From NCBI GenBank assembly GCA_964016885.1, contig OZ024753.1, positions 11,656,001 through 11,720,000 of the forward strand: 64,000 nt of DNA, written 5' to 3'. Shown one piece after another: positions 7,329 through 8,507 of this stretch (positions are counted from its first letter, which is position 1; each line of letters begins with the position of its first letter). Made by a program: the position numbers and the translations under genes. Source of the DNA: Eledone cirrhosa (taxonomy: Eukaryota). Below the pieces are notes generated by a model that saw only the letters and a program-made list of their open reading frames with translations, was not told the origin of the DNA and did not search any database.

Positions 7329-7683
7329 ATGGCTAACCAGCAAAAATCCAAACAGAACTGGTCTGATAATGAAATCGACATTCTAATAAACACATGGCAT
7401 TGCCTTTCCCAAACAGAAAATATAGATGCTTCATCTCTGAACGACATTGCTAAACGTACAGTTCAATTTTTGAAAACTCGATCTGAACAACAGATTCAAA
7501 ATAAATTAAAGCAAATCGAAATTGCTTTTAAATTAATCAATAAACATTTGGATAAACTACGGTGTGTTTTCTCTTCGAATGCTGTCCAGCAGCAGCAACA
7601 ACAACAACAGCAGCTACAACAGCAACAGCAACAACAGCAACAACAACAACATCAACAACAGCTACAACAACAACAACAACAGC

Positions 7684-7714
<31 letters not shown>

Positions 7715-8507
7715 GTGTGAACCACTCCTTGATTCATCAACAATGGCCGATCTACTAAATGAAACTATTGACCCCCCAGTAGCCTCTGTCTCACAGCATG
7801 AAACGCCACATCCTTTCTCTGGCCCAGCAGTCCAATCATCACCACTGCCAACATCTCTGCCTACTACTACTACTACTACTACAACATTTTTGTCTACTGC
7901 TATGTCAAGGAATTTACCTTCTAATACCAGAACAAGAACTCTCCCTCCCACAGTCCACAAAGGTCGTCAAATCCTACCCAAACCATCATCTACACCTCTC
8001 ACAACACCCACACCCACATACCCACCCACTCGAAACCCCATCATTTGCCGCTACTCTCTACGCTATAGAATATGTACGGATAGTGGCTGCAAATTCACCC
8101 ATTTACCTAGGACAAAACGATCTATCCCCACAAACAGCCACCACCATAATACATACTCTAATTTAACACCAACACAACCACCAATAACTCAAACAAGGAA
8201 TCCACAAATCTGCCGTTTTTCCCTGCGAGACAGATTGTGTTTAGACCGGGATTGTCCCTTTACCCATCTCCCGGGGACCCGTCGGATAAATGAAAATAAA
8301 ATTAAAAATAAAAGCAAAAACAAAAACCATAACCTACATAAAAATAACCACTACCACAGTCACCAACAGTCTTCTAAACAGGAAACTTCTTCCTCGTTTT
8401 TAGCCATAATGAATCTGGCAAAAGAACTGGAAAAAAACATTCGAGCTATCACCCAGCACCACCCTCCACTATCACCCCACTGCACAAACTCCCATTGCTG
8501 CCATTAA
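7329..8507 (+). CDS. LINE ORF1: N-terminal Myb/SANT-like (trihelix) domain, polyQ, Pro/Thr-rich linker, two CCCH zinc fingers
   Basis: 392 aa. NWSDNEIDILINTW...RSEQQIQNKLKQI fits the Myb/SANT-like pattern. CRYSLRYRICTDSGCKFTH and CRFSLRDRLCLDRDCPFTH are both C-x8-C-x4-C-x3-H. It lies directly upstream of the RT ORF. Confidence 0.85.

Follow-up and report, generated by a model that had tools for sequence, protein, structure and literature searches.

A CR1-clade LINE carrying a Myb/SANT-like domain, a polyQ tract and CCCH fingers in ORF1, with a candidate −1 frameshift site where ORF1 and ORF2 overlap

The window, i.e. the whole stretch of 64,000 nucleotides from Eledone cirrhosa that was analysed, contains a full-length LINE and a 5′-truncated copy of it (Table 1). 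The helix pattern, the polyQ tract and the twin C-x8-C-x4-C-x3-H modules named in a preliminary description of this DNA are all located in ORF1 (7329-8507), as it had reported. TA runs are also found inside the 5′ UTR. ORF2 matches PF14529/PF03372 at the endonuclease, followed by PF00078 at the reverse transcriptase (RT). The truncated copy differs from the element by a single mismatch in the aligned part, at the 5′ edge of the copy, and this near identity indicates that the LINE family is young. Sampled 31-mers of ORF1 are present at 57–93% in six public runs (three organism labels, two studies; the best run may be the source sample), so that an assembly artefact is unlikely for ORF1; runs with a word share < 0.2, all RNA rows among them, were not counted as evidence. 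The exact ORF proteins are absent from the protein collection that we searched.

Table 1. Features of the LINE and of its truncated copy (positions in the window)
Feature	Position	Strand	Remarks
CR1-clade LINE, full length	6623..11602 (approx.)	+	both ORFs open; 5′ edge judged by eye where the TA/TACA array ends
5′ UTR	6623..7328	+	
5′ UTR, 51-bp tandem duplication	6718-6821		
5′ UTR, ~240-bp tandem duplication	6833-7068 / 7068-7317		93% identical
5′ UTR, short upstream ORF	AUG 7013		single; 9 codons
ORF1	7329..8507	+	392 aa; open throughout
Myb/SANT-like domain	7353..7550	+	aa 9-74; three predicted helices
polyQ	7587..7715	+	aa 87-129; CAA/CAG
CCCH finger A	8046..8102	+	C-x8-C-x4-C-x3-H; aa 240-258; family finger-3 type
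CCCH finger B	8211..8267	+	C-x8-C-x4-C-x3-H; aa 295-313; family finger-3 type
Candidate −1 slip site G_UUU_UUA	8396..8402	+	encodes family-conserved FL; 19 nt past opening of −1 frame
Second candidate −1 slip site A_AAA_AAC	8432..8438	+	canonical; ORF1 register
ORF2	8378..11515	+	stop to stop, 1045 codons; APE endonuclease + RT; −1 frame relative to ORF1
3′ UTR	11516..11602	+	87 nt; predicted stem-loop, z −3.1
3′ UTR end, 10-bp unit	11583-11602		repeated twice
5′-truncated copy of the LINE	28080..28409 (approx.)	+	in a different TA-rich array

Several other repeats lie in the window. A SINE-like repeat of ~190 bp occurs in about a dozen copies, some of them tandem pairs (copies at 13888-14069, 14200-14413, 20655-20845, 21556-21749, 25367-25751, 37978-38166, 39896-40156, 51930-52312 and 56250-56446). 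At 41341-43126, a 48-bp satellite forms 37 copies with 93% matches. The minus strand at 62487-63113 holds a 208-codon frame without a Pfam match at E 0.01; judged by eye, it presumably resembles the end of a Penelope-type element.

CR1 elements are characterized by a short tandem-repeat tail, a stem-loop in the 3′ UTR and 5′-truncated copies, and all three are present here. Compared by eye with the supplementary alignment of PMC10294476, the RT differs from O.sinensis_33_LINE at 5 of 129 residues. This entry, with 69 RT members, is assigned to Jockey/CR1 in Table S7 of that paper. With 124 of 129 residues shared, by eye, with a CR1-assigned RT, the LINE is placed indirectly in the CR1 clade, and the CR1 context taken by the preliminary description stands. 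One RT motif occurs at 33 places in the same supplement, and among the matches listed 22 of 22 are Octopus entries. By its RT, the lineage is already catalogued. The classification of O.sinensis_33_LINE in PMC10294476 is made by RT alone, the term ‘ORF1’ appears once in the main text, and no ORF1 domain is described for this family in the main text or in the parts of the supplement considered here. Two other placements were rejected: two Proto2 reference RTs differ throughout, by eye, from the RT of the window, and the ‘unknown I clade’ of O. sinensis was dropped because CR1 is where the matching RT is listed in the parts of PMC10294476 considered. The octopus element described in PMC9115989 is an RTE, distinct from the LINE of the window. 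At the 3′ ends of three related loci (L001, L002, L081), we notice a doubled unit with a CAAAGT-like core as in the tail of the window element.

The PF13837 Myb/SANT-like group includes trihelix proteins and Harbinger-associated Myb domains, with links to Harbinger and TRAS. Both parts of the expected pattern, W11-x8-I-x2-W23 and R51-S-x2-Q-I-x-N-K, are found in the N-terminal domain of ORF1. This domain alone (aa 1-85) matches PF13837 Myb_DNA-bind_4 with an E of 5.4e-5 and 23.9 bits, below the curated cut-off of 27, while the full ORF1 protein reaches E 0.0022. An exhaustive phmmer search over 1.84 billion representatives gave 4 matches. Three are short homologues (37–40% identity), and the fourth is a multi-Myb protein of a fish in which PF13837 occurs as seven repeats. 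P0125, 46% identical over 90 residues, scores 31.7 against PF13837, above the cut-off; its Atlas neighbours are PF13837 clusters (0.92–0.94), and past the domain it continues with a short polyQ and then a Thr-rich linker. P0126 and P0128 are without a PF13837 match at E 0.01. A short polyQ follows the domain in two of the three homologues, all of which are fragments that may or may not belong to a LINE.

Superimposing the homologues in an alignment reveals that 7 of the 15 invariant columns lie in the third, putative recognition helix, where R51, Q55, I56, N58, K59, K61 and I63 are invariant in four of four homologues. The W-S-x2-E...IA...R-S-x2-Q...K pattern of the window aligns with the repeats of the fish multi-Myb protein. 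Compared with PF13837 proteins, on the other hand, the window domain has degenerate aromatics (by eye, Leu has taken the place of the family's aromatic residue at two positions), scores below the cut-off and sits inside a LINE ORF1. In a shuffle control the domain reached 23.8 bits and the top of 2000 shuffles 10.6, with a profile from protein found with the query and hence only partly independent.

A fold check on this domain had been suggested. AlphaFold predicts three helices, both from the single sequence and with the 4-sequence alignment, but the models are weak (pTM 0.38 and 0.45) and no significant fold match was obtained. Foldseek gave no match at E 0.001, with the Zeste DNA-binding domain at rank 2 (E 3.0); in VIA, the best Z values (5.2–5.5) fall on unrelated helical chains. 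PDB sequence searches with the domain or its profile found nothing under E 0.03, none of 9 candidates was significant in a word-indexed search with aa 1-85, and the Myb profile had no match at E under 0.03 among 159 upstream ORFs. Our findings support the idea that the domain is likely homologous to the PF13837 group, in line with the Myb/SANT-like call of the preliminary description. It may have a Myb fold, and it would bind DNA via helix 3.

The polyQ comprises 39 Q in 43 residues, encoded by 28 CAA and 11 CAG codons, and ORF1 also contains a Pro/Ser/Thr-rich linker (54 of 104 residues). The ordered parts of the protein are the helical N-domain, the two fingers and a terminal helix. The fingers follow the spacing C-x(6-14)-C-x(4-5)-C-x3-H with conserved ligands. 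Among 200,000 shuffled versions of the ORF1 protein, 0.03% contain two relaxed CCCH motifs. On the window ORF1, zf-C3H1 scores 19.4 bits (cut-off 20.9). The CCCH family profile finds Muscleblind fingers as its best matches in the PDB (E 0.02). Going by the CCCH family, the fingers would bind zinc and RNA.

By comparing 160 ORF2-related loci, we found finger arrays in ORF1 of the three best ORF2 loci (L001-L003) and of L083, L098 and L126. The finger profile retrieves 30 proteins, among which two are from the ctenophore Mnemiopsis leidyi and five are the same elements, identical or nearly so. Searched against genomes harbouring related loci, it matched in three of five, with one new locus, and in 0 of 35 of a further set. 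A search of viral contigs confirmed none of 94 candidate stretches. Each of the 30 proteins has one C-x8-C-x4-C-x3-H module, which is always the last finger. By regular expression, 15 of them show a PHD-like pattern; Pfam adds another, and several of the rest are truncated. The usual plan is a helical and PHD-like N-terminus, three fingers and a terminal helix led by FL (25 of 29). Neither a match to the Myb profile nor a Q run over 4 occurs in any of the 30.

The two fingers of the window score 41 and 50 bits against family finger 3 and at most 10 against fingers 1 and 2. Since both are of the third type, the window lineage has likely lost fingers 1 and 2, duplicated finger 3 and replaced its N-terminus. 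Judged from these sequences, CCCH fingers are widespread in ORF1 at the level of the clade, most often as a set of three behind a PHD-like N-terminus, and only the Myb and polyQ N-terminus and the doubled third finger are particular to the window lineage. The fingers are not unique to the window ORF1, since the nearest RT relatives and the 30 proteins share them, and the preliminary description is corrected on this point.

An RT tree was built from 94 of 193 sequences after 99 unlabelled loci had been dropped; it is rooted at the midpoint and includes no named references. In this tree the window element, L001-L003, L083 and P0117 form one group with support 1.0, and L098 and L126 sit on another CR1 branch. 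The presence of finger ORF1s on separate RT branches is consistent with ORF1 exchange between lineages, and the sections of PMC4120745 considered here describe free swapping of ORF1 modules in CR1/L2.

Pfam finds no domain of ORF1 types I-IV (RRM+CCHC, Tnp22, PHD, esterase) in the window ORF1 at E up to 10. The element shares with the CR1/L2 types I-V of PMC4120745 the two-ORF CR1 organization and a modular ORF1, and its relatives share a PHD-like N-terminus resembling that of type III; in that scheme, as far as those sections go, the window ORF1 would be an unclassified type V. No CCCH or Myb entry appears in the same sections of this survey of 448 Jockey-superfamily ORF1s, which agrees with the earlier suggestion of an undescribed ORF1 type. 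A literature search of mostly open-access papers turned up no account of an ORF1 with CCCH fingers or a Myb domain in CR1. The CCCH ORF1 class may already be annotated in Repbase/Dfam. Among the sequences compared, the Myb-like module is lineage-specific.

Other ORF1 architectures were seen among the loci. A NADAR domain follows a PHD finger in three ORF1s (L110:58-1359, L144:3-1589, L085:2-616), which are near each other in the RT tree; PF08719 is above cut-off in the first two and weak in the third, and NADAR ORF1s are not in the ORF1 table of PMC4120745, in the version considered here. The ORF1 at L089:2587-3840 has an SH3 domain and then a GDSL esterase. Within L081-L160, many GTDB genomes have contigs bearing animal-type LINEs, i.e. 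host DNA in bins.

ORF2 of the window lies in the −1 frame and shares 130 nt with ORF1. Its first AUG, at 8819 (codon 148), falls inside the endonuclease, past both the first endonuclease motif (N67) and the conserved E103. All seven CCCH elements with DNA show a −1 overlap (130–253 nt), and in all seven the −1 frame opens 4–22 nt before the first slippery-type heptamer in the ORF1 register. From this site the −1 frame stays open for 42–83 codons, and further upstream ~7–16% of the −1 codons are stops. The first heptamer is U_UUU_UUA in four elements, A_AAA_AAC in one, U_UUU_UUG in one and G_UUU_UUA in the window; it is canonical in five of seven (five of six relatives), against a background of 6 in 2769 codons. 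The non-canonical site of the window counts against a frameshift, and the second heptamer, A_AAA_AAC, lies 36 nt downstream of it. The sections of PMC5009743 considered count A_AAA_AAC with the heptamers most prone to shifting. For the conserved FL, six of six elements use the codons UUU-UUR (joint P 1e-5 from codon usage, which overstates independence as the elements are kin).

An AUG before the first endonuclease motif is absent in five of the seven elements, and L003 and L083 have an in-frame AUG there. In P0117 the fingers, EN and RT are fused, with three of five cluster members full length. L164 (G003:C340, minus strand, ~397) has one extra T at the FL site, making a seven-T run, and its fingers are in frame with EN; a homopolymer error or a defunct copy could account for this. 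In downstream folds modelled without pseudoknots or long-range pairs, no conserved 3′ stimulator was found: seven of eight have z between −0.7 and +0.9, and one, at −2.1, folds better than its shuffles. From the arrangement of the reading frames, ORF2 is likely made through a −1 ribosomal frameshift as an ORF1-EN-RT fusion. The preliminary description had overlooked this overlap and its slippery site, which would place the Myb-like domain and the CCCH fingers on the EN-RT chain. Non-LTR elements named in PMC5009743 include HeT-A and L1, and ‘CR1’ does not occur in the sections considered; our search of mostly open-access papers found no description of a CR1 slippery site.

Among 43 CR1-like loci without CCCH fingers (L004, L006, L009, L010, L013, L015, L019, L024, L029, L050, L095 and others; L096, a duplicate of L095, was left out), ORF2 is in the −1 frame in 17, in the +1 frame in 11 and in frame behind a stop in 15. 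Of 14 loci whose ORFs overlap in −1, 11 have a canonical heptamer within the overlap, giving 13 sites in 664 codons where 1.3 would be expected; none of the 8 loci overlapping in +1 has one, against an expectation of 0.4.

Both LINE copies of the window are inside TA-rich arrays. The array unit is equal on the two sides of each copy (8-mer cosine 0.99 and 0.96) and differs between the copies (0.34–0.45), so both copies entered pre-existing TA-rich arrays. A target-site duplication is not readable within the flanking arrays. The LINE tail ends in TTA, which provides microhomology with TA repeats. The 3′ flanks of the Myb-less L001 and L002, and of L081 with its ORF1 off the contig, are not TA arrays. 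An unrelated, unclassified element of ~560 bp has two 93% identical copies (3429-3992 and 57433-57956 (−)), both flanked by TA runs, and a palindromic, MITE-like element of ~330 bp (~1086-1420) is also within a TA array. Because unrelated elements sit in TA arrays as well, the tethering of the Myb domain to AT repeats that had been proposed is left as a possible but unsupported reading of n = 2 copies.

On the basis of these results, we propose a model in which the CCCH fingers and the basic patch of ORF1p would coat and package the element RNA. A small share of ribosomes would slip −1 near the end of ORF1, producing a 1395-aa Myb-polyQ-CCCH-EN-RT chain. The N-terminal reader, PHD-like in the relatives and Myb-like here, would dock the particle on DNA or chromatin. 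The endonuclease, together with base pairing between the final UUA of the tail and TA repeats, would fix the insertion point in TA arrays, which we hold to be more likely than sequence reading by the Myb-like domain. We infer RNA binding, frameshifting, DNA binding and docking from the domains and frames. The account as a whole, an AUG-less ORF2 expressed by −1 frameshift fusion (~1395 aa) with RNA-packaging fingers and a Myb-like domain as a swappable docking module, seems to us somewhat better than an even chance.

The Myb-like domain may instead read TA repeats sequence-specifically and steer integration into TA microsatellites, which is compatible with the frameshift fusion and would then make the element R2-like. 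The entry of both copies into existing arrays, arrays that make up 9–22% of the window, would fit such a reader, as would the different 3′ flanks of the Myb-less L001 and L002 (and L081) and the putative recognition helix being the most conserved part. However, only two copies are concerned, the 560-bp element (two of two copies) and the 330-bp palindrome are found in TA arrays likewise, and the TTA end offers microhomology without any protein reader; we regard TA reading as unlikely. The domain might also have no role in integration, making protein contacts, binding the TA-rich, duplicated 5′ UTR of the element as a regulator while the polyQ serves in activation or condensate formation, or persisting as a tolerated passenger of ORF1 shuffling. 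A Myb, polyQ and Pro/Ser/Thr-rich linker in succession resemble a transcription factor, the nearest cellular match is a multi-Myb protein, the 5′ UTR has internal TA runs, and modules are freely exchanged in CR1/L2 (PMC4120745, sections considered). Yet the Myb-like domain fills the N-terminal slot of the PHD-like module of the relatives, and a pure passenger fits poorly with conservation at 37–46% and a short polyQ behind the domain in two of three homologues. We find a role wholly outside integration improbable.

ORF2 may also be made separately, by termination-reinitiation or by non-AUG initiation near the ORF1 stop, with FL kept as the start of a helix and the Myb-like domain and CCCH fingers on ORF1p only. 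UUG and CUG codons do occur in the ORF2 frame shortly ahead of the ORF1 stop, the residues after FL have hydrophobic helical periodicity, no stimulator was found in the downstream folds, an AUG precedes the endonuclease in two of seven elements, and the sections of PMC5009743 considered favour AUG-independent initiation for ORF2 of mammalian L1. In seven of seven elements, however, a heptamer follows the opening of the −1 frame within 22 nt and the frame stays open for 42–83 codons, and the UUU-UUR codons are fixed; separate synthesis does not explain these features, and we give it a low probability. The frameshift fusion with a docking module is the reading that we prefer.

The element bears on how ORF2 is translated in two-ORF LINEs other than L1 and on which roles ORF1 domains play. 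It is a compact test case for both, in which a conserved slippery site predicts a defined fusion and a CCCH scaffold shows a natural swap of PHD-like and Myb-like modules. Should the EN-RT chain carry a reader domain, ORF1 domains could work directly at the integration site; if true, this bears on insertion build-up in microsatellite-rich genomes and on efforts to turn APE retrotransposons into tools by retargeting them. In addition, the CCCH class widens the standard ORF1 classification.

U_UUU_UUA and A_AAA_AAC are the frameshift sites of HIV-1 and MMTV. The retroviral gag-pol sites treated in PMC5009743 (sections considered) have the same heptamers and register, and there too a zinc-finger, RNA-binding ORF is joined to a pol-like ORF. 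In contrast, the window LINE is a non-LTR element, no conserved stem-loop or pseudoknot was found, and its first site has G at position 1. Among LINEs, Dictyostelium TRE5-A uses a −1 frameshift. Its ORF1p binds TFIIIB to reach tRNA genes (PMC5633606, sections considered). TRE5-A resembles the window element in being an APE LINE whose two ORFs overlap and whose ORF1p has been linked to the choice of target, but in the same account it has neither Myb nor CCCH and belongs to another clade.

The R2-type RLE elements carry a zinc finger and Myb N-terminus used in targeting (PMC13708176, sections considered), and, provided that frameshifting takes place, the RT chain of the window LINE would likewise bear Myb and zinc fingers at its N-terminus. 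The window LINE differs in its N-terminal APE, two ORFs, CCCH fingers and PF13837-type Myb, where R2-type elements have a single ORF and a C-terminal RLE. That an APE LINE independently reached an R2-like design, with a −1 frameshift Myb-polyQ-CCCH-EN-RT chain, a captured Myb aimed at TA microsatellites and PHD and Myb exchangeable in an unlisted CCCH ORF1 class, is in our view a doubtful proposition. R2-type elements use a fixed target; two of two copies of the window LINE are in TA arrays, of different units.
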